Both the position numbers and the translations under genes were made by a program. The notes below the pieces were generated by a model, which was given only the letters and a program-made list of their open reading frames with translations, was not told where the DNA came from and searched no databases. Below, piece after piece: positions 32,979 to 56,040 of a stretch of 64,000 nt of DNA. The DNA lies in NCBI GenBank assembly GCA_963651875.1, contig CAVJSA010000001.1, positions 26,534-90,533 of the forward strand. Direction: 5' to 3'. The stretch's first letter is position 1. Each line of letters opens with the position of its first letter. The DNA comes from Lachnospiraceae bacterium (lineage in GTDB: Bacteria; Spirochaetota; Spirochaetia; Treponematales; Treponemataceae).

Positions 32979-33641
32979 TTATTTTTTGAAAAAATTATTT
33001 TTGATAAAATTGTTCTCAGTGATTTTGTTTAATGAAGTTTTTTCAAGTTGCGATATTGAAATCGCTTTTTTTATAATTTCTTTTCGTTCATAGTAGCTGC
33101 CGTTGATATGTCCCCAAAAGCGACCGACACGTGTCGGTTCAAAATTAAAGGACAGGCAAAAGTCATAAAAAATATCTGAAAGATTTTCTTTTTCAATTTT
33201 TGTAATTGTAATTTTTGTTGATGAAAGTTTTTTCCAGATATAATTACAAATGAACAGAGTTTGTTTATCGGTGTAGTTAAGTTTTAAATTTGAAATTATT
33301 TCAATCTGAACTTTTCCTTCAACGATATTTTTTTTCCAGATAAAAAGCGGTATTTTAATTTTAGAATTTCGCCATTTTTCATTGGAAAGGGAACGACAGA
33401 ATGATTTTACTTTTTTAAAAAATTCATTCTGATTTTCTAGTTCAACTGCCTCAAAGAGAATAGTATATTTGGGACTGAACGATACTAAAGAATCAACATA
33501 AAAACATAATCTTTTTATGCTTGAGCGTGAAAGTTTTTTAATTTTTCCTCGTTTGTTGTTTTTTAGGTTTTCCGAATAACCTCCGCCAGTACAAATTTCA
33601 ACAAAATGTTTTGTTGTTAAGTAATAAGAATTTTTTTTCAT
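32979..33641 (-). CDS. degenerate rolling-circle Rep-like protein
   Basis: RGKIKKLSRSSIKRL, FIWKK and GRFWG recall RCR initiators. No HUH or catalytic YxxK seen. AAGGAG RBS. Confidence 0.45.
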   Translation of the reverse strand: MKKNSYYLTTKHFVEICTGGGYSENLKNNKRGKIKKLSRSSIKRLCFYVDSLVSFSPKYTILFEAVELENQNEFFKKVKSFCRSLSNEKWRNSKIKIPLFIWKKNIVEGKVQIEIISNLKLNYTDKQTLFICNYIWKKLSSTKITITKIEKENLSDIFYDFCLSFNFEPTRVGRFWGHINGSYYERKEIIKKAISISQLEKTSLNKITENNFIKNNFFKK

Positions 33642-33694
33642 TTTCTTAAATCTCCTTTAAGAAAATGATTTTTAATAAAGAGATTTTATACGAT

Positions 33695-34582
33695 ATGAAT
33701 TTGCAAAATATTTTTGACACTCATTTTCTTGTAACTCGCTATCTTTGTCCTAATACAAGGCTTACGTATTCTGCTTATGTAAAACGCTTTTTGAATTTTT
33801 TAGAAATTCGCCAGATTGAAATTCAAGCTGTAGATATAAAAGTTCTTATTACTTTTTTTACGACACTGCCAAAAAGTATTAGTTCTAATAGACTTATGAT
33901 TTCTGCATTAAGAAAATTTGGAGAAGTTCTTGTCTTTGAAAAAATTATTTCTGAAAATATTTTTTTGATTTTAGATTTACCAAGACGTGAAAAAACTTTG
34001 GCACGTGTTTATGAAGAAGATGAAGTTAATGCTTTTTTAGATTGTATTGACGATTCAACAATTATTGGTAAGCGTGATAAAGCATTATTTGAATTGATTT
34101 ATTCAGCAGGTCTAAGGGCAAGTGAAGCTGGAGATGTAGAAACGGCAAGCCTGCATCTTTATGATAAATTCTTATTTGTTACAGGCAAAGGAAGAAAAGA
34201 AAGAATGGTTTGTTTTGGTGATATTTGCCGTAATTATTTAGAAGAATATCTGGATTATAGCCGACCATTTTTATTAAAAAATAAAAACTCTAAATATCTT
34301 TTTGTAAGTACACAACAAAATAAATTAAATCGAAATGAAATATGGTATAGATTTAAAAAATACCGAGAAAAGGTAGGTTTGCGCTACGGCACAGTCCATA
34401 CTTTAAGGCATAGTTTTGCAACACATCTTTACAAGCACGGAATGGGATTAGAAAACATAAGTCTTTTGTTAGGACACGAAAATTTAGAAACAACCTGCAT
34501 TTATACCCATTTAGACGGTTCGTATTTAAGAGAAGTTCATAGAAAGTATTTCCCAGGGCGTCCATTAGATGAAGATGAGTAA
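33695..34582 (+). CDS. XerC/XerD-like tyrosine recombinase
   Basis: RDKALFELIYSAGLRASE, GKGRKER, HTLRHSFATH, LLGH, TTCIYTH. Start may instead be 33665. Confidence 0.92.
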   Translation: MNLQNIFDTHFLVTRYLCPNTRLTYSAYVKRFLNFLEIRQIEIQAVDIKVLITFFTTLPKSISSNRLMISALRKFGEVLVFEKIISENIFLILDLPRREKTLARVYEEDEVNAFLDCIDDSTIIGKRDKALFELIYSAGLRASEAGDVETASLHLYDKFLFVTGKGRKERMVCFGDICRNYLEEYLDYSRPFLLKNKNSKYLFVSTQQNKLNRNEIWYRFKKYREKVGLRYGTVHTLRHSFATHLYKHGMGLENISLLLGHENLETTCIYTHLDGSYLREVHRKYFPGRPLDEDE

Positions 34583-34617
34583 GTTTTCGACCGACACGTG
34601 TCGGTCAAAAGAAAATG

Positions 34618-36699
34618 TTATTTATTCTCGAAGATTCTTGCAAGACGATAATTTGAATCCAGTATAAAACGGCATTCGTAAGTTTTACCTTCTTTACTGG
34701 TACATTTTTTTATTCCTGTTTTTTTACCTGTACAAAGATTTTTTACATCGCTTTTTGTAAAACTTGTTCCGCTGGAATTTTTCCAGATTGACGGAAAGTT
34801 ACAACCTTCTTTATATCCACTACAGAAAAAATTTTTTGCAGATTCTCTAATCGGCTTTTGACAAATTGGACAAAGAGTATCATCTGTTTTTATAGCGGAA
34901 AGTTCGATATTAAATTTTTGAGATACTGAAGTTCTTACAAAGTTTTTAATGTCGCTTATAAACGCAACAGGATTATTCTGTAGTTCTTCTTCCCAGTCTG
35001 TTGTTTGCGAAATATCAGCAGTTTTTGCAATCGATGAATTTCTTACTGCACAGAGAAATTCTTTTCCTAATTGAGTACAGATAAAATTCTTTTTTAAAAC
35101 TTCTATATATCCTAATTTAATAAGTTTTGGAATAAATGTATGTCTTGTTGCAGGAGTTCCCAAGCCTGCAAGTTTTGAACCGACACGTGTCGGTTCACTT
35201 TCGTCTGAATCATCTGCGACCGACACGTGTCGGTCGTACTTTGGATTTTCCATAAAAGAAAGAATACTTGCTTCATTGTAATATTTTGGAGGCTTAGTCC
35301 ATTTTTCAACTGTTTGTATGTCTGTTAAAACTAAATTATTCCAGTCGATATTTGAAAATTCCTGCGTTTCTTCCTCAGAATCTTCCTTTTGAACCGACAC
35401 GTGTCGGTCGAACATTACCGGTAAAATTTTAGAAAAGTTTTTATTGTTCCAGCCATATTCTGTAATGTTTTTTCCTATAATTTTAAAAGTATTATTATCA
35501 ACATTAAGAATAACTGTTGTTTTTTGATATTTTTGAGCTGGAAGAAATGCTGTTAAAAAACGTTCGTATATTAGTTGATAGATTTTTTTCTGTTCAGCGC
35601 TTGCTTGTGCAGAAATCTTTTTTAATGGAATTAAAGCGTGGTGAGCTTCAAGTTTTGCATCATTGAAACATCTTTTATTACTTAGAGAAAAATCTTCTAA
35701 TTCTTTTAATTGATTTAATTCGGAATTTTCTGTACAGAACTGATTAAAAATATTTTGACAAAGTTCTGTGTTTTTACTTCCCATAACTCTACTTGGAGTT
35801 CTTGGATAAGAAACACATTTTAATTCTTCATACAGACTTTGAAGAATTTTTAGAGTTTTTGCAGCGTCAAATTCAAAATATTTAAAAGCATCTTTTTGAA
35901 GTTCATTCAAATTATACAGTTGTGGTGGCAGTGTTTCTTTGTTTTCTGTTTGAAAATCCTGTAATTTTGCTTGAGTTCCAATACAGGTTTTTAATGATAA
36001 CTCTAATGAACTGTCTTTGAATTTTGTTCCAGAAAGATTAAAAACAATACCTTTTACTTTTGTGTTTGAACCGACACGTGTCGGTTCAAAATATCCGTAA
36101 TGCTCATAATATTTTTCTGGAACAAAGTTTTTAATTAAATCACACCTTGTTTCAATGGCAGAAAGAATTGCTGTTTGAACTCTGCCGACTGACAATTTTC
36201 TGTTTGCAGCAGAAGAAACGTATCTTGAAAAATTCATACCAACAAGCCAGTCTGCCCTTTGTCTTGCAAATCCTTGAGAAGCAAGTTCATTGTAATTTGT
36301 TAAAGGTTGTGCATTTTGAATTCCAGTTTTTATAACCTCTGGAGTTAATGCTTGTGATACCCAGAATCTTTTTATTTTGGAAAAATCTTTAATACCAGCC
36401 ATAAAAAGACATTCACGAGCGATAATTTCACCTTCTCGGTCAGCGTCAGTTGCAATCAAAATATCTGAATTTGCATTTTCTTTTAGCAACTTAATAACAA
36501 GTTTTGTTTGCTCAACTGTTTTTGGATTGATAGTGTAATCAAATCGTTCTGGAATAATTGGAATTTCAGAGCCGTAATGTTTTGGTTCTTCCAGTTGAAA
36601 AAGATGTCCGATGCAGTAAGAAATTATTAAATTTGGCATTCCTTGCAAGGCATTTTTAAAGTCTTTTGCAACGCTAGGTTTTTCCGCAAGTATAAACAT
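34618..36699 (-). CDS. topB: type IA DNA topoisomerase III (mobile-element type)
   Basis: LAEKPSVA, ATDADREGE, SVGRVQT, SYPRT, AHHALIP, GLGTPATR, C-terminal CPICQ..CSGYKEGC. Confidence 0.92.
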   Translation of the reverse strand: MFILAEKPSVAKDFKNALQGMPNLIISYCIGHLFQLEEPKHYGSEIPIIPERFDYTINPKTVEQTKLVIKLLKENANSDILIATDADREGEIIARECLFMAGIKDFSKIKRFWVSQALTPEVIKTGIQNAQPLTNYNELASQGFARQRADWLVGMNFSRYVSSAANRKLSVGRVQTAILSAIETRCDLIKNFVPEKYYEHYGYFEPTRVGSNTKVKGIVFNLSGTKFKDSSLELSLKTCIGTQAKLQDFQTENKETLPPQLYNLNELQKDAFKYFEFDAAKTLKILQSLYEELKCVSYPRTPSRVMGSKNTELCQNIFNQFCTENSELNQLKELEDFSLSNKRCFNDAKLEAHHALIPLKKISAQASAEQKKIYQLIYERFLTAFLPAQKYQKTTVILNVDNNTFKIIGKNITEYGWNNKNFSKILPVMFDRHVSVQKEDSEEETQEFSNIDWNNLVLTDIQTVEKWTKPPKYYNEASILSFMENPKYDRHVSVADDSDESEPTRVGSKLAGLGTPATRHTFIPKLIKLGYIEVLKKNFICTQLGKEFLCAVRNSSIAKTADISQTTDWEEELQNNPVAFISDIKNFVRTSVSQKFNIELSAIKTDDTLCPICQKPIRESAKNFFCSGYKEGCNFPSIWKNSSGTSFTKSDVKNLCTGKKTGIKKCTSKEGKTYECRFILDSNYRLARIFENK

Positions 36700-36817
36700 T
36701 TTTACCCCTAAACTCGACCGACACGTGTCGGTCGAAACTCATAAAAGAATTTTAGAAAAATAATAAAAACAATGCAAATATAAAATAATAATAACTAAAC
36801 AAAAAAACGTAAAAAAA

Positions 36818-36893
36818 CGCCTAACTCTATGACGCAAGATAAAGGTTTGTCGTACAAACACAAATAATTATATAAGTAATATAGAGTTAGGCG
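36818..36893. other. long-range inverted repeat in the divergent intergenic region
   Basis: CGCCTAACTCTAT (36818-36830) pairs with ATAGAGTTAGGCG (36881-36893) and encloses GTTTGT-CGT-ACAAAC. Confidence 0.6.
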
Positions 36894-37170
36894 GAGCACA
36901 GTGCTTTTTTGCGTGGTATTTTGTATTTTTCTACTATATTATGCTTGTGGTACATAATAAGAATATAGTATAATAAAAACAATACAAAAGACTATTGAAA
37001 TAAAAATGTAAAAAAGTTAATTTTGTATTAAAAGCCAATTAGTCAGATGATAATACCTATTTTTTTTGAAAAATCTATAAAATACAGAATTTTTTTAGGC
37101 TAAAAGCCTAAAATGTCAGATTTTAGTACTTAATTTTGAACCGACACGTGTCGGTCGTAAGGAGTAATAA

Positions 37171-37509
37171 TTGGAAATCGAAACAGGTCGTAATTATTCA
37201 ATGGCAGAAATCTGTTCATTACTGAATTACAACGAAAAAACAATAACTAAGAAAATTAAAAAACTGGAAATAAAGCCTGTTGGAAAAATAGGCAACAAAC
37301 GTGTATTTAGTGCGGAAGATGTCCAGAAAATAGAAAAATATAAACCAATGGCATTTAATCCTAAAACGGAATTTTTTAGAGTAAGTGTTTTAATTGGGAA
37401 TCACTGGATTGTAAAAAATGCAGGATTAACAAAAAAACAGGCTGGGGAGCGTATAAAAAAATTTAAGGCAGACGGTTATTTTGCGCAGTGCCGTAGTTGT
37501 AAAAAATGA
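37171..37509 (+). CDS. small HTH DNA-binding protein (MerR/excisionase-like)
   Basis: YSMAEICSLLNYNEKTI..RVFSAEDV; TTG start after TAAGGAG. Confidence 0.65.
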   Translation: MEIETGRNYSMAEICSLLNYNEKTITKKIKKLEIKPVGKIGNKRVFSAEDVQKIEKYKPMAFNPKTEFFRVSVLIGNHWIVKNAGLTKKQAGERIKKFKADGYFAQCRSCKK

Positions 37510-37542
37510 ACCGACACGTGTCGGTCGTAAGGGATTAAATAA

Positions 37543-38121
37543 ATGGCAGGCGGATATTTTTCTAAAAACGTTAAAAAGACTTTTGCAGAAGAAATAAAAC
37601 AAAGTAAAAACTTTTTTTATGAATTAAAACTTGGAATCGGAAAATGTGGTTTTCCTGAGTTACCAGAAGTTATTGAATATTTATTTGTGGAAATGGAAAT
37701 TCTGCATAGACAGCGTTCAAGGTTTATGAAAAAGAATAAAGGATTTATAAAACGATTCTTTATAAAGTATGACAATTTAACTGATATGTACGAACCTTAT
37801 TTTAATTTTCTTTTACTTTCTAATAAAACAAAAGAAAACTCAGAAATTTTTAAACTTCATTTACAAAATTATCATCAATGGCATAATGTCTGGTGCTTGA
37901 TTCATAAAAATTTTGATGATGTTGTAGTAAAACTTGAACCACTTGAAAATGAAAATGCAGAAACAATTATAAATGACTTTTTTAAGCAGCCGACAATCGA
38001 AGAAACTCCAATGCTTGGTGAAGAACAACAAAAAGAAATTCTTAAAAATCACAGGACTGTTTCTTTAGGTGGCATTTTTAAGGAAATCAAGAACCGACAC
38101 GTGTCGGTCGTAAGGGATTAA
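37543..38121 (+). CDS. Rep_1-like protein lacking the HUH motif, paralogue 1
   Basis: GFIKRF...YEPYFNFLL in place of HPHFH; RTVSLGGIFKEIK matches the Rep_1 C-terminal motif. Confidence 0.5.
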   Translation: MAGGYFSKNVKKTFAEEIKQSKNFFYELKLGIGKCGFPELPEVIEYLFVEMEILHRQRSRFMKKNKGFIKRFFIKYDNLTDMYEPYFNFLLLSNKTKENSEIFKLHLQNYHQWHNVWCLIHKNFDDVVVKLEPLENENAETIINDFFKQPTIEETPMLGEEQQKEILKNHRTVSLGGIFKEIKNRHVSVVRD

Positions 38122-38125
38122 AAAA

Positions 38126-38701
38126 GTGGCAGGCGGATATTTTTCTAAAGAATTAAAAAAATCTTTTGCCAAAAAAATAAAAACAAGTGAAAACTTTTTT
38201 TGCAAAATAAAACTTTCGATTGGACTGTGTGATTTTGTTGAATTACAAACGGTTTGCAAATATTTGTTCGGTATAAATGAACTTCTTGATAAAAAGAAAT
38301 TTTACTTTATTAGTGGACAAAGTTTTATTAAGAGATTTTTTATTCTCTATGACAAAATGACAGGAATGTTTGAACCGTGTTTTATTCTTCTTTTACTTTC
38401 TACTAAAAGCAGGATAAAAAGCGAAATATATAAAATTCGTGTAAGTATTTATATTCGCTATCTTAGTTTATGGTGCAGGTTGAATAAAAGTTTTTATGAA
38501 AACTCAGTTGTTGTTGACCAATTAGAAAACGGAATGGCAGAAGAAATTATCAATGAATTTTTAAAAAAAACAACAATCGAAGAAAATTCAATGATTGATG
38601 AAGAAACCTTAAAAACTAATTGCAAAAATTATCCTAGCGTTACATTGACAGGAAGTTTTAAAAGTATAAAACAAAGATACTTGTCAGCGGTTGAACGATA
38701 G
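38126..38701 (+). CDS. Rep_1-like protein lacking the HUH motif, paralogue 2
   Basis: GTG start, identical MAGGYFSK, colinear similarity to 37543-38121. Confidence 0.5.
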   Translation: MAGGYFSKELKKSFAKKIKTSENFFCKIKLSIGLCDFVELQTVCKYLFGINELLDKKKFYFISGQSFIKRFFILYDKMTGMFEPCFILLLLSTKSRIKSEIYKIRVSIYIRYLSLWCRLNKSFYENSVVVDQLENGMAEEIINEFLKKTTIEENSMIDEETLKTNCKNYPSVTLTGSFKSIKQRYLSAVER

Positions 38702-38794
38702 AAAATGTTCGACCGACACGTGTCGGTCGAAAGTAAGTGAGTTTTGTAATTTTGCCCCCGATTGTATTCAATTTTACAGCAGCAAAAAAGAGCC

Positions 38795-38849
38795 AATGGC
38801 GAGTTAGGACAAGTTAGAGCGACAAAATGGCAAATTAGGACGAGTTAGA
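38795..38849 (+). repeat. 24-bp direct repeat just upstream of the relaxase (candidate oriT or operator)
   Basis: AATGGCGAGTTAGGACAAGTTAGA versus AATGGCAAATTAGGACGAGTTAGA, 21/24 identical. Confidence 0.6.
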
Positions 38850-38869
38850 AAAAAAAGGAAGAAATTATT

Positions 38870-40054
38870 ATGTTGTCAAAAAATATATTTACAGATAAAT
38901 GGGAAGAAGATTTATACAAGATTAAAAAAGCGTATAAAAAAGACGATGTAAGTTATCTTAATAACCTGTTAAAAAAACTCAGCCGACCGACACGTGTCGG
39001 TCGTAAAGGTTCTAAAAGTTTTTCTGGCGGTAACGCAGTCTTTTTTGAACCGACACGTGTCGGTTCAATGGATTCTAAACAGCAACGTGTAACTTTTAAA
39101 ATGACTTATAGTAATTCAAAGCAAGCTCACGACAAATATCTTAATACCTATATGACGCAACAAAACAGAGAAGAAGTAACTCAAAAACCTGTTCTTTTTG
39201 GTACAGAGGTAGATGTTTATAATGAAAATCAAGTTGATAACCATTTTAAGTGTATTATTTCCCCAGAGAATCAAAACGCAGACCTTGAGATTTTGACAAG
39301 AACGTTTGTAAAACATCTTGAAGCCCAGACTGGATATAAATTTTACTGGCAGGCAGCTATTCATAGCAACACTGAACATAAGCACGCTCATTTATGTATA
39401 AACGGAAAAGACCAGAACGGAAAGGACGTTTATTTTCAAAAAGAAATGATAAAAAGAACAATGCGAGAAACTCTTTCAAATATTGCAACAAAACTGTTAG
39501 GCAATAGAACGGAAGCAGAAATTCAAGCTGGAAGAAAAAATCTTATAACAGCTATGCGCTGGACTGAACTTGATGAACGTATAAAGAATTCTGCATCGTT
39601 GTTTTTTCCTACATTAGATTCTGTATTACAAAATCGTATTGCGTTTTTAATCCAGAATAATCTTGCATCTAAAAATGATGAAAATTGTTCTTTAAGGGAA
39701 GAGTGGGAAGACGTATTAAAAGCAACTGGACGGTACAATACTTATTTTGAAAAATATCAAAAATTGAATGGAAATCTTGAACTTTATTCTGGTGGTAGCG
39801 TTATTGGAAAAGTTGTTGATTTAATCAGTTTTGATAAAGATGAAAGTTGGAATGATGCTTTAATAATCAATGATGGACAGAAAAATATTTATGTTCCAAT
39901 TTATCAGCTGCAAAAAGAAGATTTAATCGGCAAAACTGTGTCTGTAAAAGGTGGAAACAGGAAACTTGCCAGACAGATAAAAAATTCTGATATTAGAGTT
40001 TTAGACGAAAATAAAAATATTCAAAATCTTAAAAACAAGAATATAAAAAGATAA
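38870..40054 (+). CDS. MOBP/VirD2-like relaxase
   Basis: QRVTFK, HFKCIISPE and AAIHSNTEHKHAHLCING (H...HxH). Confidence 0.85.
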   Translation: MLSKNIFTDKWEEDLYKIKKAYKKDDVSYLNNLLKKLSRPTRVGRKGSKSFSGGNAVFFEPTRVGSMDSKQQRVTFKMTYSNSKQAHDKYLNTYMTQQNREEVTQKPVLFGTEVDVYNENQVDNHFKCIISPENQNADLEILTRTFVKHLEAQTGYKFYWQAAIHSNTEHKHAHLCINGKDQNGKDVYFQKEMIKRTMRETLSNIATKLLGNRTEAEIQAGRKNLITAMRWTELDERIKNSASLFFPTLDSVLQNRIAFLIQNNLASKNDENCSLREEWEDVLKATGRYNTYFEKYQKLNGNLELYSGGSVIGKVVDLISFDKDESWNDALIINDGQKNIYVPIYQLQKEDLIGKTVSVKGGNRKLARQIKNSDIRVLDENKNIQNLKNKNIKR

Positions 40055-40090
40055 TTGAACCGACACGTGTCGGTCGTAAGGAAAAGAAAA

Positions 40091-40321: not shown

Positions 40322-40447
40322 CAAATGAACCGACACGTGTCGGTCGGATTATCCGTAATGTTCTGTATTTATATTATTTTGACATTGTACAATATTTAAT
40401 ATAAACTCTTTTATAAGTATCTGCTTCGCCCAATTTAGAGGATACTT

Positions 40448-41152
40448 ATGAGTATAAAAAACTACCAGCCAGAAGGAAAGGTTATTACACCTTTCAATTT
40501 GCAGTTATCCCATTACGATATGCTGTGTGGTGAAAAAGACAAACAGATAAAAATACTGCGTTTTGTTGTTGTTATTGCCTGTCTGTCTTTTTTTCTTTCA
40601 CTTGGAATTACTTTTTATGCTGTTAATCTGCCAGAATCTATTCCAGTTTTAGTAACAATGAATGATTTTGGAGAAACTTCTTATGTCGGTGCAGTAAGCC
40701 GAAAAAACTTTCAGAATTTTAATGTTCCAGAAATTGCAGTTGAATATCAAGTAAAAAAATTCATTGAACTTTATTACACGTTAAGTACGGATAAAGTTGT
40801 TATGAAATCAAATCTAGCAACTGTATACCATTTATTGAATACCCAGTCTGCACAAAAGCTAAATATTTTAACAAAAGAAACCAATCATTATGCAGACTTT
40901 GGAGATTATACAAGAGAAGTATTTTTTCAGACAGAACCGTTAAAACTATCAAAAGACAGTTATCAAGTTGATTTTGAAGTTACAAAACGAACATTGAGTG
41001 GCGAAACACAGGATAAGTTTTATTACCGTTGTGTTTTGACCGTTCGGATGCTAAAGCCTACTGACGATGACATAAAATTTAATCCGTTAGGAATCTATAT
41101 AACCAACTTTGACTTTAAAGAAATTCAACAGCAAAAGACAGGAAGAAAATAA
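40448..41152 (+). CDS. trbF: T4SS TrbF/VirB8
   Basis: Single TM helix, SYQVDF, NPLGIYITNF. Confidence 0.85.
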   Translation: MSIKNYQPEGKVITPFNLQLSHYDMLCGEKDKQIKILRFVVVIACLSFFLSLGITFYAVNLPESIPVLVTMNDFGETSYVGAVSRKNFQNFNVPEIAVEYQVKKFIELYYTLSTDKVVMKSNLATVYHLLNTQSAQKLNILTKETNHYADFGDYTREVFFQTEPLKLSKDSYQVDFEVTKRTLSGETQDKFYYRCVLTVRMLKPTDDDIKFNPLGIYITNFDFKEIQQQKTGRK

Positions 41153-42247
41153 ATGAAAAAAAGTATATTTACATTAAAAATAGTACCACTGATTTTTTTA
41201 GTATCAGCGTGTGTAAGTTCAAAAGACCTTGAAAAAGACGTAAACGAAAATGATTTTTTTGAAGATACAAAAAATATTGAAGAAGAAGAACAGAAAAACG
41301 AAAGTGAATTAAAGGGCATTTATGTACAAGAAGAACTAAAAGTTCAAGATGTGGAAAACACAGTCGTTTATATTGATAGACCTGTTTACGTACCAGAACA
41401 GAAAAATGTTCCAGAATTAGAACGCAATAATAAAAGTGGCTATGAAGCTGCCGTTGAAAGTCAAAAACGTGCTACAAAATCACCAGAGCGTTACAAGGAA
41501 GGAACTTTTTTTTATACATATAGTGAAGATTTAGTTTTTGAAGTTTATGCACAGCCATATCATTTAACGGACATTATTCTTGAAGCTGGTGAAATTGTTA
41601 ATGCAACTCCGTTACTTTCTGAAGGTGAAGAAGTCTGGGAATTAACAGCAGGTGTTGCTAAAGACCCATTAACTCAACAAGACATTCAGCATATTTTTAT
41701 TAAACCTGCGTATTCAAAATTGGATTCAAGCCTTGTAATTATTACAAATCGCAGAGTTTACCATTTTAGGATAAGGTCGTTTGCAGACACTCATATGGCA
41801 ATGGTCAAATTCACCTATCCAAACAAATTCAATCAGTGGGCAGGGAAAAACTCAAGTTTAAATTCTTCTGTTGAAAGTGATTTTGTACGCATAACAAATC
41901 CAGAACTTCTTTCGTTTGACTATAAGATGTCTTATTCAATGTGGAAAAAGCCAGAGTTTTTACCGACACGTGTCTATGATGACGGACAGTCAACTTATAT
42001 TCAAGTTACAGATTCTGTCTTGCAGAAAAAACTTCCTGTACTTTTTAACGAGAAAAACGAAATTATAAATTACAGCGTAAAGCGTAATATTTTTGTAATT
42101 CCTCGTTTAATTAACAAAGTTACTTTAAGGCTTGGTAAAGAAAAGGTAACTATTCAAAAGAAAAAAACAAAAGCAGTTGTAGTTGAACAAAAAGAGGAAA
42201 GTACAAATGGAAGACCAGACACAAAAACAACAGCAAGCGGAAAATAA
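41153..42247 (+). CDS. trbG: T4SS TrbG/VirB9, lipoprotein-like
   Basis: TDIILEAGE, HIFIKP, ITNRRVYH, PTRVYDDG; LVSAC lipobox. Confidence 0.85.
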   Translation: MKKSIFTLKIVPLIFLVSACVSSKDLEKDVNENDFFEDTKNIEEEEQKNESELKGIYVQEELKVQDVENTVVYIDRPVYVPEQKNVPELERNNKSGYEAAVESQKRATKSPERYKEGTFFYTYSEDLVFEVYAQPYHLTDIILEAGEIVNATPLLSEGEEVWELTAGVAKDPLTQQDIQHIFIKPAYSKLDSSLVIITNRRVYHFRIRSFADTHMAMVKFTYPNKFNQWAGKNSSLNSSVESDFVRITNPELLSFDYKMSYSMWKKPEFLPTRVYDDGQSTYIQVTDSVLQKKLPVLFNEKNEIINYSVKRNIFVIPRLINKVTLRLGKEKVTIQKKKTKAVVVEQKEESTNGRPDTKTTASGK

Positions 42248-43658
42248 CAGCGAAAATCCTAATCAGTTTGCAGCAGCAAGCATAAACAAATCAGACTTTT
42301 CCGCAGACGATATTGCTACTGACAGTCAAGAAGACGGAGACTTGCCACCTCCAGAAGATGAAAACGAAGCTACTCAAATAAACGTAAGTGCAATTTTTGG
42401 AGCTTTTTTTATCTTAGTTTTTTTGATTATTTGTATTTTTCTTATTTTTGGACATAAAAAGCAAAAAGTTAAAAATACTGATATGGAAAAGGCTAGTTCA
42501 AAATATGGCTACAATTTTGACTTAAAAGAAATGGATAAAGAAGAAAAAAAGCCTGTAAATACTTTTGAAAATTCTATATCTCAAGAAAATCCAGCAGAAA
42601 GTAACACTATGACGGACGAGCAGATACAAAAAGAACTAGAGGCTTTTGAAGGTGATGACACTCCAGCCTATACTTATAATACTAATAGTGGCAAAGCACC
42701 AGTAAGAGCAGTTGGTTCAAATTATTCAAATGTTGAACGTCCCGATACAAGAAATTCAAAATCGCCTAGAAAAATAGACGGATTAAAAGGGCAGAGTTCT
42801 CCAGACGCAAACAAAAGTATTGTCAGTGCAGCATTAAATGGTAGTGGCACAACTTCTCAAAATGAAAGAATGACAAAAGAAGATTATATTTTGCAGATGA
42901 TGAATCGAACTCAACAGATTCAAAATCAAGTTTATGGAAGCAATACATCGTCTGGCAGTTTTGGTTCAAATTCAAGTTATGACTATCAAGGCAATAAAGA
43001 ATCTTTCTTTACTAACAATACTGGCAATGGAGCAGGAAGTGGTACTTATCTTTCTTATAATTCTCTTTGGGACGGAACGATTATCAGCGGTGCTTTAGTT
43101 ACTGGCATAAATACGGATAACCCAGGAGTTGTAATTGCTCGTGTAACAGAAAATATCTATTCAAGTTATGACCACTCTTTTCTTTTAATTCCAGAAGGTT
43201 CTTTGCTTTATGCAACTTATAACAGTTCTGTCAGTTATGGGCAGGATTCTGTTCAAGTCGCTTGGAATCTTTTAATCCGACCAGACGGTTATCGAATATC
43301 ACTAGGAAATATGAACGGTGTTGATTCGCAGGGAATGAGCGGTTACGAAGGAAAAGTAAATAATCACAACTGGCAGATGATGAAGGCTTTTGGACTTATT
43401 GCTGTTTATTCAATGATTCAGACAGAAATCAGTAACGATATTTCAAATACGAATAATGAATATCTGCAAAACGCTATGACAGACGTTTATACCGAAGCAA
43501 AAAAACTTGGTAACAAAATTGTTGACCGTGCGCTTGATATAAAACCAACCATAACGATAAAAGCAGGCACAGAAATTAAGTTAATTACAAATATTCCTTT
43601 GGAACTGCCTCCAGTTGAGATCCCAAAGGCTAGTCAAAAATATGTCAGAACAAAATAA
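42207..43658 (+). CDS. trbI: T4SS TrbI/VirB10
   Basis: GTIISGALVTGINTDNPG, LLIPEGS, IRPDG, DSQGMSG, IKPTITIKAG. Confidence 0.9.
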   Translation: MEDQTQKQQQAENNSENPNQFAAASINKSDFSADDIATDSQEDGDLPPPEDENEATQINVSAIFGAFFILVFLIICIFLIFGHKKQKVKNTDMEKASSKYGYNFDLKEMDKEEKKPVNTFENSISQENPAESNTMTDEQIQKELEAFEGDDTPAYTYNTNSGKAPVRAVGSNYSNVERPDTRNSKSPRKIDGLKGQSSPDANKSIVSAALNGSGTTSQNERMTKEDYILQMMNRTQQIQNQVYGSNTSSGSFGSNSSYDYQGNKESFFTNNTGNGAGSGTYLSYNSLWDGTIISGALVTGINTDNPGVVIARVTENIYSSYDHSFLLIPEGSLLYATYNSSVSYGQDSVQVAWNLLIRPDGYRISLGNMNGVDSQGMSGYEGKVNNHNWQMMKAFGLIAVYSMIQTEISNDISNTNNEYLQNAMTDVYTEAKKLGNKIVDRALDIKPTITIKAGTEIKLITNIPLELPPVEIPKASQKYVRTK

Positions 43659-43664
43659 AAAAGT

Positions 43665-43877
43665 ATGAAAAGAAATTGGTTCAGTAACTTTGAATTACAG
43701 GTTATGGAATTAAACGAAAGATTTAATGAATTTGAAAAACTGTCTGAAGATTTTGCTGATGTTGTAAAAAGACTTACGGTTAATTTGCAGGAGAATTCAA
43801 GAGTTAACTATGAATCTTTTAGACCAGCACAAGAGAATCAAAATTTTAAGAAAGTAAAAGATAAGGAGATTTTATGA
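43665..43877 (+). CDS. small coiled-coil hypothetical protein
   Basis: 70-aa ORF filling the gap; ATGA overlap with the next gene. Confidence 0.5.
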   Translation: MKRNWFSNFELQVMELNERFNEFEKLSEDFADVVKRLTVNLQENSRVNYESFRPAQENQNFKKVKDKEIL

Positions 43878-46800
43878 AAAGGAAAACAAAGCAAAGCTTT
43901 TTTTATGCTTTTATTGCTGTAATTGCAATGGCTGTCTTTATTACAGGTTGCAGTTTTTTTTCTAGTTTTACAGATAAAGATGAAAGTGATGTTGAAATAA
44001 CTTCATTAAGTCTAGGAAAAAGCACTTTATCACTAAAAGTTGGCGGACTTGATTATGTTTCGTTAAAAATCACCCCTATAACAAGTCAAAAAGATGTAAA
44101 AGTAAATTGGACTTACGACAGTTCAATTATCGAAGGAGAAACTTCCAACTATGGAATAACAATAAAAGCACTTGCAGAAGGAACAACAGTCTTAAAGGCA
44201 AGTTATGGAAGTTATGAATCTGTTTGTATTATTAGCGTGTCTGGATATGAAGACGGATACGTAGAAACAACAGACCCATATATTTATTCAAATACAAGTA
44301 TTTTACAGACAAGCATAGGTATTACCGAAAAAGTATTTGTTTCTCTTCATGGCGGTAGTGCAGCTGATATTGACGGTTATACTTGGAGCAATGAAAACAG
44401 TTCTGTTGCAGAAATTCAAGCGACTGGTCAATACTGCCTTATTACGGCTAAAAGTACTGGATACTCAAGAATTAAAATTACACATTCAAAGGCAACATAT
44501 CCTTATTATATTGGTGTTTATGTTTTTAGCGATAATACAAAAGTTCCTTATATTACAACTTCAAACAATATTCTTACCTTAAATAAAGATGATGCAGAGC
44601 AGACTATCAGCTGTAATCTTGTTGACGGAAGCGACAGTGCAAAAGACAGTTATTTTTCTTGGGAAATTTTGTCTTCTGATAGTGCACAAGTTCCTGTCAG
44701 TATTTCGTCTAATGCAAATAAGGCTGTAGTAACTCCAAAAGCAGAAGGAAGCTGTACAATCCGAATTACTCACCCAGAAGCAACATATCCGCTGGATATT
44801 CTTTGTCGTGTAATTACCATTGTTAAAAATGTTTATATTGAACCAGACAATACTATTGTTACTCTAAGTGGCGAAAACGAACAGATAATCAGTTCAACGC
44901 TAAAAAATATTGATACAAGCGAATATTCAATCGACGATTACGAATATAAACTTGATGATTATGATGTTGCAGAAATTGTCGGTTACAGTGGTAACCAAGT
45001 AATTTTAAAAGGAAAGGCAAACGGAAGCTGTAAACTCATTATTTCGCACCCGAAATCTGTTTATTCAAGAGAAGTTCTTTGTATTGTAAACGGTCAGTTA
45101 AAAGACGCTGTAGATTCTTCCGTTTATATTACGACTACTCAAAACTATATCCGAACAAAAGTTGGAAACGATGCAACAACATTAAATATTTCGCTAAAAG
45201 GCGGAGAAGACGGTGATGAAGGAAACTTTACTTGGACTGTAAAAAGTACGGCAGTTGACGGTAGCAGCGATGTAATTCAACTTGAAACAGCAAATGGAAG
45301 TGTAATTAGTTCAAGAGTGGCAGCTTCTACCTATGCTTATGGAACGGCAGTAATTACGCCAAAGGCAGAAGGAACAGCCGTTATTACAATTACTCACCCG
45401 AAAGTTGTTTATCCTACAGAAATTCTTGTAAAAGTTTTAGATTCTTCAGCTGTACTTGAAAATCCGCTTTATTTTAGTGGAGAAGGTCTTGTAAAAATCT
45501 TAAATGGCGAAAGTGCAGATTATACTGTAAATCTAAAAGGCGACAGTAAAAAAGATAGTGATGATAACAACATTAGTTATGAAATCAGCGATTCAAGACT
45601 TTCTTTAATTGCCAGTGCAAACACTGTAAATATTACAGCCCCAGCATTAAATACAGGTTGCACAACTTCGACAATGACAATTTCGCACCCGAAAGTTGAT
45701 ACTTCTAAAACTGTTGTTGTAATGACAGCCGATGACGAAGAAACTTTGGATTCAATGAAAGCTCTTTATGCAGACAAGAATTATTACAATCTTGAATATG
45801 GCGCAAGCGTTATTGTAACTGTTAATACAGTTGGTTTTGACGGTGAAGATTCTAGTTATGATTATTCAAAAGCAAATTGGACAACGACAGATTCTACTGT
45901 AATTTCTGTAGAAAAAAATTCTACAGACGGTCGAATGTGCACTGTAAAAGCACTAAAGGCTGGAAGTGTTAATCTTACTGTAAGTATCGAAGATTATTCT
46001 TATACGTTCAAAATAACCGTTTATCCAGAAGGAGCAATTCAGACAGACCCAGAAGTTTATTTTACGACTACCCAGAATGTTGTAAATTTAATTGGCGAAG
46101 GCAGCACAAAAACTGTAAGTATTACGGCATTAAATCTTTCTTCAAGTGAATATTCTAATATTACTTGGGAAGTTGAAGATTCTAATGTTGCAACTGTAAT
46201 TCCAAATGGAACTAAAGCGACAATAACGGCAGTTGCGGACGGTGAAACTGTAATAAAAGTAAATCATTCAAATTCTCAAAATGAACTTAAAATCTATGTA
46301 AGAGTAGGCAGCGAATACGTTATTCCAGAGGTTGACCCTACCGTTTATATTTCTGCGCAGGACGTTATTACAATGCTAAAAGACGATTCTGTTCAAAAGT
46401 TGCAGGCAGTCCTAGTAAATTACAGCGAAGCAGATTCAAACGGATTTAAGTTTTCGATTGATAATGAAGACATTGCAAAAATCTCAACGCAATCTGTAAA
46501 TGGAATTGCCTATATAAAGCCTGTAAGTGCAGGGCAGGCAGAAATTAGTATTACTCACCCAGCAACTTCTATTGTAAAACACGTTCTTGTTGTTGTCGGA
46601 AACACCGCAGAAGACCTTGCAGCGTATCAATATTTGACGACAAGCACAAACGTTGTTGCTATTGGCGAAGGCAGCACAAAAACTGTAAGTGTAAGTGTTA
46701 AAAATTCAGCGGAAGTAATTGTTGACGGTTACAGCTGGTCTAGTGAAGATTTAAACATTGTTGATATAACGACAACAAACGGTGCAACGGCAGTTTTTAA

Positions 46801-49800
46801 AGCCAATAAATGCGGAACAACTACTGTAAAAGTAAGAAATACAGCGTGTTCTTATCCGCTTGAAATTATCGTACAGGTTGTTGACCCGATAGCAGCAGCG
46901 GCAAATCCTTATATTCAGCTTAGTTCAAGTGTTTTAACATTAAATGTTAGTTCAACTTATACAAATATTACGGCAGACTTAGTTGGTGGCAGTGAAGAAG
47001 ATTATTCAGACTTTATATGGAGCGTAAATGACAGTTCAATTTGTAGCGTTTATGGTCAAAACGAAGTTGGAAAAATAAAGGCATTAAAAGCAGGAACAAC
47101 TTATGTAACTGTTTCTCACCCAAAGGCAATGTATACAGCTCAACTTCTTGTTGTTTGCGATGAAGTAGCCGCAACTGAATGTTATATAAGCGTACCGTCA
47201 AGCATTATTGCAATGAAACCAACGGATTCAAGCCAGACTATTACGGCAAGCCTTGTAAATGGTTCAACTAACGATAAATACAATTTTACTTGGTCGCTTG
47301 ATGTTTACGATATTATTGATTTTCAATACTCAGCTAATGTCTGCACAATTACACCAAAGTCAACTGGAAGCGTAACTATTACAATTTCGCACCCAAAGGC
47401 AGCGTATGACCAGCAGATAATTGTAAACGTTCAGCAGTATTCAACTTTTGGATTTCCAGATACAAATTTAACGACAACACAAGGAAACGTTAAATTTTTG
47501 ACAATGCAAGTTCCTACAACAAATGCGACAACATATATTTCTTATTCTGTTGATGATTCAAGTATTTGCTCAATTACAGGAACAAAGAGTGTCGCTCAAC
47601 TAACGGCTATCAGTGCAGGAACAACAACTATTCGTGCTGACCTTATTGCAAGCTCTACTGGAGTTGTTCAAGCAAGTTCGGAATGTATGGTTTATGTACA
47701 AAAAAAATCTGTTGATACGGCTTATATTTCAAGTTCAACAACAATTTATACCGTACAGAAAGGAAAAAGCCAGACTATTACGGCAACTATTTCTGGTACA
47801 GATGTTGAAACTAACGATTCTGCAAGTCTAAAATGGACAACATCGGATAGCGATATTGTTTCCGTTACAGGAATTTCTTCTGACGGTTATGTTACAGGAA
47901 AATCAATCTACGTAACGGCAAAAGCAGCAGGCGAAGCAATTATTACCTGTACTCACGAAAAAGCAGCTAGCGCATTGCAGTTTTATGTAGTAGTGCCTGG
48001 CTCTTCTTCTAAAGTTGTTACGTTGAACAAGTCTTACATAACTTTAACAAACGGAAGCAGTGGAACTACAATTTCTGCAACTGTTGAAAACGCAGAAAGT
48101 AACGAAGATTACAATAATCTTGAATGGAAACTCGAAAGCCTTAATACTGTTGATGAAATTGCAAGAGTAATGGGAAGTGGTAAAACTGTAACAATTTATC
48201 CGATTAAAACAGGCGAAGCTACTTTGACTGTTTCTTTGCCAGACAGCGCAAGCACAGCAAAATGTAGTGTAATTGTTGAAGCAAACAAAAGTTTAACTTT
48301 TGATACAAGCAGTGTAAGTGTCCAGCCAGCACATACAAAGACAATCGGCTATAAAGTAAGTCCAGCAAACGCAACCTTAAATTGGGTGTATACATATCAA
48401 TCTACAGGAGGAGGAACGCAGGATGTTTTTTCTTTCCGTGATTTAGGCTGTGATTCTGACGGTAACGGTAAAGTAGAAATTATTGGCGAAGCAATAGGCA
48501 GCGGAACACTAGCGGCAACAACTGACGGAAATGCAAAAGGGCAGATGTCGGTTCGTGTAGCGTGGGATTATAGTTTTAGCGTTAAAGGAAGTTCTACATT
48601 TAGTTGTGAACCCAACGAAGTAAAAACGTTTAATTACACAGTAAATCCAGCAGACGCTGATGTTTATATTGATTCAACAGACGCAGGAGATATTTTTAAT
48701 TATTCTGTAACCGACAATGGCGATGGAACAGGCACTATAGAAATTACAGGATTAAAAGAAACTTCAACCGATGTTTCTATAAAAGTAATTGCCACCAATC
48801 CAAACAATAATGACGAAGAAATTGGTACAAAAAAGATTACTGGAAAATTTAGGTATGGAAGTGTTAGTGCAACTGTAAACGTTACTAACCTTGACGGAAA
48901 TTTTTCTGAGTATGACAGCGGTATTCTTTATGTTGGTGATGGCGAAAAAGTAAAACTTAATGTTGGATTAACGCCAGTTGGCGCAAATATTTCTAATGTT
49001 ACAATGACTTTTTCAAATAACTCAGATGTTAGCAAAAATTTGTTGTCTGGTGGAAGCAACAATGAATGGACTTTTACAAGTCCAAGTGAAGATATTACAG
49101 AAAATGAGTATTTGATTAACAGTTGCTATTTACCGTGCCTTGACGGAACTGTAATAGCAACTTGGGATACATCTTTTAACTGGTATGTAGGAAATCACAA
49201 GCACGGTGATTCTACAGATTGTACAGAAATTGTTCAGATTTATAACGGTAACAGTTTTAATTTTAATACAAGTTATTGTATGAGAGGCTATACATATAAT
49301 GTTGTTTCTTATGACGATGACGATAGTGCAAACTATGGAAGAATTGCAGAACAAACTGCGTGTGAAAAATTTTTAAAAGAGCATTATGGCTATCGTATGT
49401 TTTTTAGCGATTATCATTATAGCAAACAATATAGAGGAAAAACTCCAGATTGGAAAACAAACAATGTTACATTTTCGTTAAAAGAAGCTCCAGAACTAGC
49501 AGGAAAGATTTATTCTCAAAAAGAATTTGAAAAAATCGGTTGGTTTTATTGTGTAGGAACTCTTTCAAATAAAACAGGTACACTTCAAAATTATGATGAA
49601 GGAGATGCATATCTTTTGAAAAATAGCGGTACGTGGGGAGTAAATGCTTCTTTAGTTGAAGACGGTTACCTTAATTGTATTGATGATAAGGAAGGACATT
49701 GGGTTTGCGTTTATCCACACGTTTTAACGGACGTTGTTGATGCTACGTTACGAACTTCAACAGATACAAAAACTGTAAGTACACAGCAGATTGGAACTTT

Positions 49801-49894
49801 AGTAATTTCTTATACGCACAATGACGAAGAAAGTAAAGTTAATATTCCTGTTTACTCTGTTGTAAGAAACTGTCAGAAAAATCTGAGTAACTAA
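43874..49894 (+). CDS. giant lipoprotein with tandem Ig-like (Big_2-type) repeats, putative adhesin
   Basis: FITGC lipobox; recurring W.S.D.S(V/I)A...G...I(T/S)HPK units; Ser/Thr/Val-rich; AAGGAG RBS. Confidence 0.8.
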   Translation: MKRKTKQSFFYAFIAVIAMAVFITGCSFFSSFTDKDESDVEITSLSLGKSTLSLKVGGLDYVSLKITPITSQKDVKVNWTYDSSIIEGETSNYGITIKALAEGTTVLKASYGSYESVCIISVSGYEDGYVETTDPYIYSNTSILQTSIGITEKVFVSLHGGSAADIDGYTWSNENSSVAEIQATGQYCLITAKSTGYSRIKITHSKATYPYYIGVYVFSDNTKVPYITTSNNILTLNKDDAEQTISCNLVDGSDSAKDSYFSWEILSSDSAQVPVSISSNANKAVVTPKAEGSCTIRITHPEATYPLDILCRVITIVKNVYIEPDNTIVTLSGENEQIISSTLKNIDTSEYSIDDYEYKLDDYDVAEIVGYSGNQVILKGKANGSCKLIISHPKSVYSREVLCIVNGQLKDAVDSSVYITTTQNYIRTKVGNDATTLNISLKGGEDGDEGNFTWTVKSTAVDGSSDVIQLETANGSVISSRVAASTYAYGTAVITPKAEGTAVITITHPKVVYPTEILVKVLDSSAVLENPLYFSGEGLVKILNGESADYTVNLKGDSKKDSDDNNISYEISDSRLSLIASANTVNITAPALNTGCTTSTMTISHPKVDTSKTVVVMTADDEETLDSMKALYADKNYYNLEYGASVIVTVNTVGFDGEDSSYDYSKANWTTTDSTVISVEKNSTDGRMCTVKALKAGSVNLTVSIEDYSYTFKITVYPEGAIQTDPEVYFTTTQNVVNLIGEGSTKTVSITALNLSSSEYSNITWEVEDSNVATVIPNGTKATITAVADGETVIKVNHSNSQNELKIYVRVGSEYVIPEVDPTVYISAQDVITMLKDDSVQKLQAVLVNYSEADSNGFKFSIDNEDIAKISTQSVNGIAYIKPVSAGQAEISITHPATSIVKHVLVVVGNTAEDLAAYQYLTTSTNVVAIGEGSTKTVSVSVKNSAEVIVDGYSWSSEDLNIVDITTTNGATAVFKANKCGTTTVKVRNTACSYPLEIIVQVVDPIAAAANPYIQLSSSVLTLNVSSTYTNITADLVGGSEEDYSDFIWSVNDSSICSVYGQNEVGKIKALKAGTTYVTVSHPKAMYTAQLLVVCDEVAATECYISVPSSIIAMKPTDSSQTITASLVNGSTNDKYNFTWSLDVYDIIDFQYSANVCTITPKSTGSVTITISHPKAAYDQQIIVNVQQYSTFGFPDTNLTTTQGNVKFLTMQVPTTNATTYISYSVDDSSICSITGTKSVAQLTAISAGTTTIRADLIASSTGVVQASSECMVYVQKKSVDTAYISSSTTIYTVQKGKSQTITATISGTDVETNDSASLKWTTSDSDIVSVTGISSDGYVTGKSIYVTAKAAGEAIITCTHEKAASALQFYVVVPGSSSKVVTLNKSYITLTNGSSGTTISATVENAESNEDYNNLEWKLESLNTVDEIARVMGSGKTVTIYPIKTGEATLTVSLPDSASTAKCSVIVEANKSLTFDTSSVSVQPAHTKTIGYKVSPANATLNWVYTYQSTGGGTQDVFSFRDLGCDSDGNGKVEIIGEAIGSGTLAATTDGNAKGQMSVRVAWDYSFSVKGSSTFSCEPNEVKTFNYTVNPADADVYIDSTDAGDIFNYSVTDNGDGTGTIEITGLKETSTDVSIKVIATNPNNNDEEIGTKKITGKFRYGSVSATVNVTNLDGNFSEYDSGILYVGDGEKVKLNVGLTPVGANISNVTMTFSNNSDVSKNLLSGGSNNEWTFTSPSEDITENEYLINSCYLPCLDGTVIATWDTSFNWYVGNHKHGDSTDCTEIVQIYNGNSFNFNTSYCMRGYTYNVVSYDDDDSANYGRIAEQTACEKFLKEHYGYRMFFSDYHYSKQYRGKTPDWKTNNVTFSLKEAPELAGKIYSQKEFEKIGWFYCVGTLSNKTGTLQNYDEGDAYLLKNSGTWGVNASLVEDGYLNCIDDKEGHWVCVYPHVLTDVVDATLRTSTDTKTVSTQQIGTLVISYTHNDEESKVNIPVYSVVRNCQKNLSN

Positions 49895-49905
49895 TAAATA
49901 ATTAC

Positions 49906-49953
49906 AAAAAAAAACTCTCAGACGCTCGTAGATGCGTTTTGAGAGTTTTTTTT
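49906..49953. terminator. bidirectional intrinsic terminator
   Basis: A9-CTCTCA...TGAGAG-T8 between convergent genes. Confidence 0.8.
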
Positions 49954-49972
49954 GAAGACTGTTTCGTAAATA

Positions 49973-50782
49973 CTAATTATAAGTAATTGTAACTATTTTA
50001 TCTGTACCGTTTAATTGGATTTTTGCTGTTGGGTTTTCACTGTTATCGCAGGCTTCTCCGTCAAAAATTACAAAATAATCTGTAATACCTTTAATAATTT
50101 TAGAATTATCTTCAATTACGCTATACGTTTCTTTGCAATCTGAAGAATGGTATAAATATACAGAAGATTTTCCGTCCCATTCAAAAGTTGAGGTATTATC
50201 AAGATTTATAATTTGTGTTTTTTCTGAAGAATAGACAAATGTAAGTATGTCTTCATCATCGCCACTGCCAGTAATTGTACTAGCATCGTACTGTTCGTCA
50301 GTAGTATAAGTGTAAACTTCATCATCATAATTATCTTTTCCACCTTGCCATACTGTTTTTGTACTATACGGGGCTCTGTATACTGCAACTAACGAGTTAT
50401 CGGATTTTTTAAATTGCAAGTAATATGCTTTTGGGTCAGGCAGTGTAATATAATCATTTTCTGTACAAGAAACTTCATAATTGTCTTTTAATCCAGAAAA
50501 ACATTTATAGAAATATGTATCATCATCAGCAGGAAAATTTAACAAAAATTTGTATGTGTAACTTACAGGTTTTTCGATGTCAAAATGTTTTTCTACTGTT
50601 TCTGTAGTAGTTGATGCTGTTATTGTATTTGTATAAACCGTCTGTCCAGAACTTGATGTTCCGTTTGTGTCTGTATTTGTATTTTCCGAATCACTACTGT
50701 TTCCAGAATCCGAGCTTTCGTTTGAACAACTGAATAAGAATACAGCCGACAGTGCCATTAAAATTGCAAGTAATTTTTTCAT
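49973..50782 (-). CDS. lipoprotein, unknown function
   Basis: MKKLL...FLFSC lipobox, Ser/Thr/Asn linker, AAGGAG RBS. Confidence 0.75.
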   Translation of the reverse strand: MKKLLAILMALSAVFLFSCSNESSDSGNSSDSENTNTDTNGTSSSGQTVYTNTITASTTTETVEKHFDIEKPVSYTYKFLLNFPADDDTYFYKCFSGLKDNYEVSCTENDYITLPDPKAYYLQFKKSDNSLVAVYRAPYSTKTVWQGGKDNYDDEVYTYTTDEQYDASTITGSGDDEDILTFVYSSEKTQIINLDNTSTFEWDGKSSVYLYHSSDCKETYSVIEDNSKIIKGITDYFVIFDGEACDNSENPTAKIQLNGTDKIVTITYN

Positions 50783-50798
50783 TGTTTTTACTCCTTAA

Positions 50799-51434: not shown

Positions 51435-51436
51435 AA

Positions 51437-52042: not shown

Positions 52043-52073
52043 CGTTCTTCTCCTGTCTGAACCCTCCTTATAA

Positions 52074-52128
52074 TTAAGAGCATATACTCTTATCTTGAAA
52101 AAAGCAACTATTTTATCTAGTTTTTTTA
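52074..52128 (-). promoter_or_regulatory. sigma70-type promoter, copy 1 of a duplicated ~55-bp block
   Basis: TTGCTT-17 nt-TATGCT; near-identical to 62411-62465. Confidence 0.7.
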
Positions 52129-52171
52129 TAATTTTTATCAGATTATTGAAATTAGTACAAATAATTATATA

Positions 52172-54418: not shown

Positions 54419-54437
54419 AGAAGCATAAGGATAAAAA

Positions 54438-54872: not shown

Positions 54873-54876
54873 AGCA

Positions 54877-55860: not shown

Positions 55861-56006
55861 GTTTTATTGAATAAAAAAGACTTGCAAGGAGGTAAAGAAA
55901 AATAAAATCAAAGTGATTTTGCGTGTTTTTTTATTGGAATATTGTTTTTAGTAAAATCACTTTTTTTGAACCATTGTTTTTTATAAGAAATATTTTTTTT
56001 AAGTTA

Positions 56007-56026
56007 CGACCGACACGTGTCGGTTG
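56007..56026. repeat. isolated palindrome copy directly before the pilin RBS
   Basis: TTACGACCGACACGTGTCGGTTGTAAGGAG...ATG. Confidence 0.95.
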
Positions 56027-56040
56027 TAAGGAGATTATTT

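Follow-up and report, generated by a model that had tools for sequence, protein, structure and literature searches.

ParB-type sites on mobile elements, some of them inside genes, are already known. KorB of the IncP-1 plasmid RK2 is a ParB-family clamp whose operator, OB, is a 13-bp site (PMC13768133), and BisD of ICEclc has two 23-bp bisS sites, both inside genes (inrR and ssb; PMC12409273). The specificity of ParB and Noc can be switched by a few residues (PMC7383237), and the parS sites of repABC are reported to lie within coding sequences and were proposed to be selected there (PMC9040568). NAH7 carries six dispersed palindromic parSNAH sites near its transfer and partition genes; its ParB enhances conjugation, and ParR binds the region of the origin of transfer (oriT; PMC12421886). 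Here we analysed a 64,000-nucleotide stretch (the window) of a genome of the Treponemataceae (assembly GCA_963651875.1, contig CAVJSA010000001.1, positions 26,534 to 90,533). It covers part of a conjugative element that carries many copies of a 16-bp palindrome, ACCGACACGTGTCGGT, probably read by the element's own ParB/KorB-like protein.

Set against these systems, the locus resembles RK2 KorB/OB in having a ParB-family protein with a helix-turn-helix (HTH) and a ParA on a conjugative element, together with a palindromic operator; unlike OB, the site measures 16 bp (7+2+7), is present in 22 copies, half of them in-frame, and differs between sister elements (PMC13768133). With BisD of ICEclc it shares a ParB-like protein on a mobile element and sites inside genes, although 22 sites stand here against two (PMC12409273). 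The 16-bp palindromic form recalls chromosomal ParB–parS and Noc–NBS (PMC7383237), and the position inside coding sequences recalls repABC parS (PMC9040568), whereas the present sites are element-specific (23 of 401 genomes), occupy the same loops with changing sequence, and show signs of copying from site to site. Dispersed palindromes near transfer genes are also found in NAH7; there ParR is at oriT, while here the ParB-type sites themselves cluster around a nic-like motif (PMC12421886). In the literature searched, mostly outside subscription papers, we found no account of these treponemal palindromes or of in-place site swapping. The new aspects are in-place swapping, copying between sites and clustering at a likely oriT, and the related elements form a natural series for how a DNA-binding protein and its 10-20 sites change specificity jointly.

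Palindrome, ParB-like protein and likely oriT

In the 2.65-Mb genome, the 22 copies of the palindrome all fell in the 59.6-116.4 kb interval of contig C1, and there were zero exact copies outside the conjugative element. The 14-bp core, CCGACACGTGTCGG, gave 17 exact matches in the window (0.06 expected from shuffles) and one further match with 2 mismatches. Two 7-bp arms flank a tolerant 2-bp centre; among the 44 half-sites 8 bases were invariant, positions 9-10 were TC in 21 half-sites and CG in another 21. Conservation faded by position 12-13 and ended 2-4 bp outside the 16-mer. Half of the copies (11/22) lay in genes, 8 inside the window and 3 beyond it, and the other 11 lay between genes; the copy at 40059 was excluded from the in-gene count, as it falls inside ORF (open reading frame) 40055 only if the TTG start of that frame is real. 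Since all 22 copies were on the element and the 16-mer was present in only 23 of the 401 family genomes, it belongs to the element and not to the host.

A host chromosomal parS was ruled out by the same distribution, the 16-mer occurring in 23/401 family genomes (16 of the 241 high-quality ones) and not in most. An assembly artefact was likewise excluded, as a 98%-identical TopB on another contig carried the same four peptides and copies were also present in a 2-contig genome. Perfecting of the flanks by template switching was not supported: position 9 was symmetric in 13/22 copies (hand count), with no clear excess. There was no Rfam match in 30-64 kb of the window, and promoter consensus matches were no commoner than in shuffles (26 versus 36.9).

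Judged from sequence comparison, the palindrome is probably the parS/OB-type loading site of the element's own ParB/KorB-like protein. The gene for this protein lies at C1 117455-118519, 27 kb beyond the window, with parA (AAA_31, E 3e-31) immediately upstream. The protein has an HTH and an invariant GYTR, the GxxR motif of the CTP (cytidine triphosphate)-binding N-domain. Pfam gave no match for the protein itself, although its homologues carry PF02195; the best PDB match of its structural model was RK2 KorB (8qa9, E 8e-8), with chromosomal ParB and Noc next in rank, and a PDB sequence search with the ParB profile returned a weak match to pNOB8 ParB alone (E 0.004). Degenerate copies of the palindrome were present inside several parB genes.

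Of 77 ParB-like sequences, 47 could be assigned a site type, and about a dozen palindrome types could be matched to defined recognition helices. Among the 47 pairs, arginine at residue 169 accompanied C at base 6 in 32/32 cases and lysine accompanied A in 11/11, with 4 changes each on the tree; an acidic residue 168 accompanied C at base 3 in 35/36 cases, and a non-acidic one accompanied a base other than C in 9/11. The recognition helix contains both positions, and for these two bases they ranked first among 287 ParB columns (40 rows), a scan run after the 168/169 pattern had been seen. Additionally, a prediction set before the search, that ACCG-type sites would lie on the ParB contig, held in 4/5 genomes (6 sites in G412; one each in G219, G424 and G210). 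The ParB-like protein would, on this reading, bind its site through residues 168 and 169 of the recognition helix.

Upstream of topB lies a nic-like motif, TATCTTGC, with one mismatch to the MOBP nick consensus YATCCTGY (as given in PMC3772185). Sequence context makes the block around it a likely oriT. It spans window positions 36820-36895, inside an inverted repeat between topB and the Rep-like and relaxase genes, is common to elements with different palindromes, and usually lies 50-250 bp from a site. No more than 4 kb separated 15/22 palindromes from the motif. Similar clustering was seen in other genomes (G216, 8/10; G196, 5/7; G151, 5/6; G234, 8/13; G129, 5/7; G298, 8/8; G363, 6/6), and no nic-like motif was found in G027 or G420. 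The array would likely load many ParB clamps around oriT and parAB, and could serve both to partition the element once excised and to control or support its transfer; a link between ParB loading and conjugative transfer is thereby suggested.

Palindromes in protein-coding loops

A sequence-only reading of the window had reported in-frame copies in topB (four), the relaxase gene (two), ORF 37543 and ORF 32979, and all were located as described (Table 1). It had also noted two reading frames, a core open in every frame and invariant synonymous positions, and each of these observations was borne out. The 11 in-gene copies used the PTRVG frame 7 times, the RHVS frame 4 times and the TDTCR frame never, and the core had no stop codon in any frame. 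In 12 topB genes, fourfold-degenerate third positions differed in 37/537 comparisons (7%) inside the sites versus 5580/11047 (51%) outside. Among the best 120 TopB homologues, PTRVG or RHVS was present in 36 and absent from 84, which had shorter loops or other peptides (SETFRS, SATLRS, ERNVSL, DRQLSV). We looked for the same peptides in variable codons among homologues without the repeat; these homologues lacked the peptides as well (84/120), and the claim of selection on the DNA stood. Third-position conservation, the 84 homologues without the peptides and the presence of other palindromes in the same loops together indicate that selection acts on the palindrome DNA. The peptides are likely by-products of carrying a DNA site in tolerant loops, where a DNA signal dictates the amino-acid sequence.

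These other palindromes, like the ParB/KorB-like protein outside the window, had escaped the sequence-only reading. At the DNA level, the loop peptides SETFRS, SATLRS, RQLSV and ECHVAH corresponded to other palindromes, each recurring throughout the element that carries it, also built as 7+2+7 and often in the same TopB loops. They included AGCGAAACGTTTCGCT, AGCGCAACGTTGCGCT, TGTGCCACGTGGCACA, ACCGACAGCTGTCGGT, GTTGCAACGTTGCAAC, GCCGTAA-NN-TTACGGC and more; as background, 452,549 chromosomal bases gave 12 imperfect matches to the site pattern and no perfect one. The sister genes L174 and L179 both had sites in loops 1 and 3, with different sequence. The central two bases were uniform within elements and differed between them (CG in 22/22 here, GC in 11/15 in G454, CA in 7/8 in G298, AA in 3/3 in G193), CG being the commonest centre overall. 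Around a distant topB (L275:8490-13530) we observed five copies of a further repeat, TTAGCGCC-TTCG-GGCGCTAA, which is hairpin-like and not 7+2+7.

Within TopB, 64 of the 72 sites found in 46 topB genes fell within three loops that make up 11.7% of the protein, and on a tree built without them these loops had undergone 8, 7 and 6 gains or losses. The MENP–GLGT loop, measurable in 45/47 topB genes, had a median of 8 residues without a site (n=29; five outliers of 12-39), 15 residues with one site (n=12) and 22-24 with two (n=4), a gain of about 7 residues or 21 bp per palindrome copy. Insertion, which had been posed against substitution, is therefore clear for this loop, whereas site 1 added only 0-3 residues and the relaxase copies lay in a Gly/Ser-rich linker that is about as long in homologues lacking the palindrome; site 2 was variable. 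In keeping with the proposal that sites were gained in tolerant loops, sites 2, 3 and 4 occupied both long segments of the TopB model with a predicted local distance difference test (pLDDT) score below 50 (432-443 and 490-509); site 1 sits in a beta-turn with pLDDT ~84. In loop 1 of two TopB proteins (P0020 and P0026), a 27-residue insertion directly follows a decayed site (PTCVGS and PTHVGS), which suggests that palindrome sites attract larger insertions.

In three topB genes (L020, L167 and L168), loops 1 and 3 each held a new palindrome and a 22-nt spacer ahead of an older palindrome. The resulting 36-bp block was identical in these two unrelated loops, about 890 bp apart, with different outer flanks, and its breakpoints lay within or at palindromes; in P0032, available as protein sequence only, the block was in loop 1 alone. 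As the identity spans two unrelated loops, one of its two occurrences must, on this comparison, be a copy of the other. Similarly, an asymmetric variant of the palindrome was identical 4/4 times in L174. The active spreading once proposed appears to be copying from one binding site to another and not the work of a selfish transposon. Ectopic recombination between copies, crossing over inside the palindrome, would both add sites and homogenise them, and many positions would in this way change together when ParB specificity changes.

Weighing the readings

Several points weigh against the explanation proposed here. After correction for kinship, the covariation was not significant (median p 0.125, at best 0.125), as supported branches gave a single independent pair at residue 169 and four at residue 168; a control scan of the Rep_1-like protein scored as high (0.81, 0.62, 0.63), its top columns being scattered and mostly hydrophobic. 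Nine of the 47 ParB–site pairs rest on the same genome and not the same contig, several depend on a single site, and 30/77 sequences were left out (29 without an assigned site in the DNA available and one second ORF at a locus). Three of the four prediction successes were single sites, where a reversed control pattern gave 0-2 matches per genome, and G245 had no ACCG-type site in 35 kb. No ParB of this family was found in G067 (99% complete), which has five copies, or in G247 and G013, with one copy each. There was no evident insertion at TopB site 1 or in the relaxase, and the arrival of a first copy at a new loop was not among the events observed.

The matching element, L049 (L049:9900-14600), is a small integrative element of Treponema socranskii. 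Its genes include an integrase, a CI-like gene, a RelE-like gene paired with an HTH gene, and a degenerate Rep_1-like gene, but neither ParB nor relaxase; it also carries the nic-like block and five palindromes. It is a candidate satellite, and would either use the ParB of a helper or be evidence for a different reader. Such a reader could be another element protein, such as the catalytically degenerate Rep_1-like protein beside oriT or an HTH or ribbon-helix-helix regulator, for which the palindrome would be an operator serving the relaxosome. L049, which retains five sites, the nic-like block and the Rep_1-like gene without ParB, fits this explanation, as do the flanking of Rep-like genes by sites, the clustering at the nic-like motif, and Rep-like columns that covary with the site as strongly as those of ParB. 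We nevertheless consider it unlikely. Rep-like proteins that share the same ACCG-type site fall to 15% identity, with F48, W113, H170 and F179 alone invariant among 19, whereas the ParB recognition helices of that group nearly all read SEKT[VI]ER; moreover, no Rep-like homologue was detected in the site-bearing loci L265, L267–L270 and L325, and the Xis-like gene had 2 matches among the loci compared.

A selfish mobile palindrome that inserts in-frame, of the Rickettsia palindromic element type or a tiny miniature inverted-repeat transposable element, would account for the ~21-bp gain per copy in one loop, the 6-8 gains or losses that the TopB tree implies for each loop, and the duplicated 36-bp block. 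Rickettsia palindromic elements are ~150 bp long and spread across the chromosome; they too are palindromic DNA read in-frame in proteins, but the present site is 16-22 bp, belongs to one element family and is under DNA-level constraint. The restriction to the conjugative element, with zero copies elsewhere in 2.65 Mb, and the swapping of sequence at conserved positions (L174 versus L179) largely refute a selfish origin, which is quite improbable; no flank was shared beyond 2-4 bp, no target duplication was evident, and synonymous positions conserved across diverged genes imply function. The palindromes might instead act as RNA or single-stranded DNA hairpins, such as terminators or processing signals, given that 10/13 terminator-like matches in 32.3-41 kb are copies of the palindrome, that one copy lies between convergent genes, and that the same 16-mer lies between convergent genes with A/T tails in Firmicutes loci. 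This is very improbable, as half of the copies are inside reading frames, Rfam gave no match, and the copies are identical within an element and differ between elements, a pattern that a purely structural role would not call for; moreover, topB of L174 has the asymmetric variant in both orientations, so that a wobble pair in one would become a C–A mismatch in the other. Selection of the peptides as protein, with the palindrome incidental, is scarcely credible: EPTRVG in RpoA is encoded by the same 16-mer in two Erysipelotrichaceae loci (L075, L076), but the TopB homologues without the peptides, the homologous loops that are shorter or carry unrelated peptides, and the invariance of the codons refute it, and the use of two frames and the 11 intergenic copies also speak against it.

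Beyond a ParB/KorB-like loading site, we can sketch a more far-reaching and rather doubtful picture, in which the sites form a self-homogenising array centred on oriT. ParB bridging would promote recombination that copies sites into coding loops and converts the array, with its peptides, when the recognition helix changes; transfer would depend on the array, and satellites that lack ParB, L049 among them, would carry oriT and sites in order to borrow the clamp of a helper.

Element composition and side observations

The element is of the Treponema conjugative type, with a XerC-like recombinase, topB, a MobA/VirD2-like relaxase, VirB2/3/4/6/8/9/10/11 and a coupling protein; NikA-like, HTH_17 and HTH 62463 proteins are also encoded. 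Beyond the window lie genes for a 5277-aa (amino acid) polyvalent protein, single-stranded DNA-binding proteins, an HTH_36 Rep, the ParB-like protein and ParA. A search of a plasmid collection gave 3 partial matches, no sequencing run was listed, and TopB found 13 loci in metagenomes, most of them distant. Feature coordinates are collected in Table 1.

Table 1. Palindromes and genes of the element, in window coordinates unless marked C1 (RBS, ribosome-binding site)
Feature	Position	Strand	Remarks
Palindrome in ORF 32979	33123..33138	.	EPTRVG frame, residue 168
Palindrome between convergent xerC-like gene and topB	34590..34605	.	
Palindrome, topB site 4	35179..35194	.	SEPTRVGSK, residue 502; MENP–GLGT loop, predicted disordered
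Palindrome, topB site 3	35219..35234	.	YDRHVSVA, residue 489; MENP–GLGT loop
Palindrome, topB site 2	35393..35408	.	FDRHVSVQ, residue 431; low-confidence loop
Palindrome, topB site 1	36070..36085	.	FEPTRVGS, residue 205; beta-turn
Palindrome just upstream of topB	36717..36732	.	~117 bp from nic-like motif
nic-like motif TATCTTGC	36834..36841	-	block conserved across related elements; likely oriT
Palindrome ahead of RBS of HTH_17 (Xis-like) gene	37140..37155	.	
Palindrome ahead of RBS of ORF 37543	37510..37525	.	
Palindrome in last codons of ORF 37543, ahead of ORF 38126 start	38093..38108	.	NRHVSV, residue 184
Palindrome between ORF 38126 and relaxase gene	38712..38727	.	
Palindrome in relaxase N-terminal linker	38986..39001	.	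SRPTRVGRK, residue 39
Palindrome in relaxase N-terminal linker	39049..39064	.	FEPTRVGSM, residue 60
Palindrome just past relaxase gene	40059..40074	.	
Palindrome upstream of virB8-like gene	40329..40344	.	
Palindrome upstream of likely trbC/virB2 pilin gene start	56009..56024	.	
Intergenic palindrome	63304..63319	.	
topB, type IA topoisomerase, 693 aa	34618..36699	-	Toprim and SYPRT motifs invariant among homologues
Relaxase	38870..40054	+	weak PF03432 MobA/VirD2-like match
Two tandem Rep_1-like genes, 48% identical	37543..38701	+	without HUH and Tyr motifs
ORF 32979	32979..33641	-	resembles Rep_1-like family weakly at best (E 2e-4 with L049 protein)
XerC-like tyrosine recombinase	33665..34582	+	
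Type IV secretion and coupling-protein genes	40448..62103	.	
parA, parB-like and HTH_36 rep genes	C1 116375-119368		beyond window

The product of ORF 37543 is Rep_1-like through a match (E 1e-14) to a protein that itself has a weak Rep_1 match. The alignment of the Rep_1-like proteins of 37543..38701 showed neither an HUH motif nor a catalytic tyrosine motif. The tandem genes are conserved beside the likely oriT across the family, and the degenerate protein is possibly a repurposed relaxosome accessory. At the left edge, window 32567-34582 holds a DUF6361 fragment, an orphan ORF and the XerC-like gene; among the loci compared, the XerC-like gene had no close homologue and ORF 32979 had no homologue.

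Directly after the palindrome, an RBS-like TAAGG(A/G) stood ahead of several gene starts (window 37141, 37511, 38094, 40060 and 56010). A 2006-aa lipoprotein with immunoglobulin-like repeats, possibly a mating adhesin, is encoded beside virB10 (window 43874-49894). The polyvalent protein (G000:C1:93031-108864; L001/L002) combines LPD3, PBECR1, MuF_C, Eco57I methylase, SNF2 helicase and RadC; its gene holds one in-frame palindrome and is preceded by two ArdC-like genes.

Outside Treponema, the Firmicutes copies among the matches listed were set aside as unrelated, being mostly terminator-like between convergent genes or in rpoA. In the Firmicutes-labelled loci L010, L011, L019, L029, L034, L048 and L073, the 16-mer had A/T-rich arms and lay in convergent-gene gaps in 5/7; these copies are probably bidirectional terminators. 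The RpoA EPTRVG of Erysipelotrichaceae (L075:8337-9296 and L076:9611-10570), encoded by exactly the same 16-mer, is apparently coincidental. Also among the matches listed, multi-copy contigs labelled Parabacteroides and Anaerovoracaceae carried homologues of the element genes.

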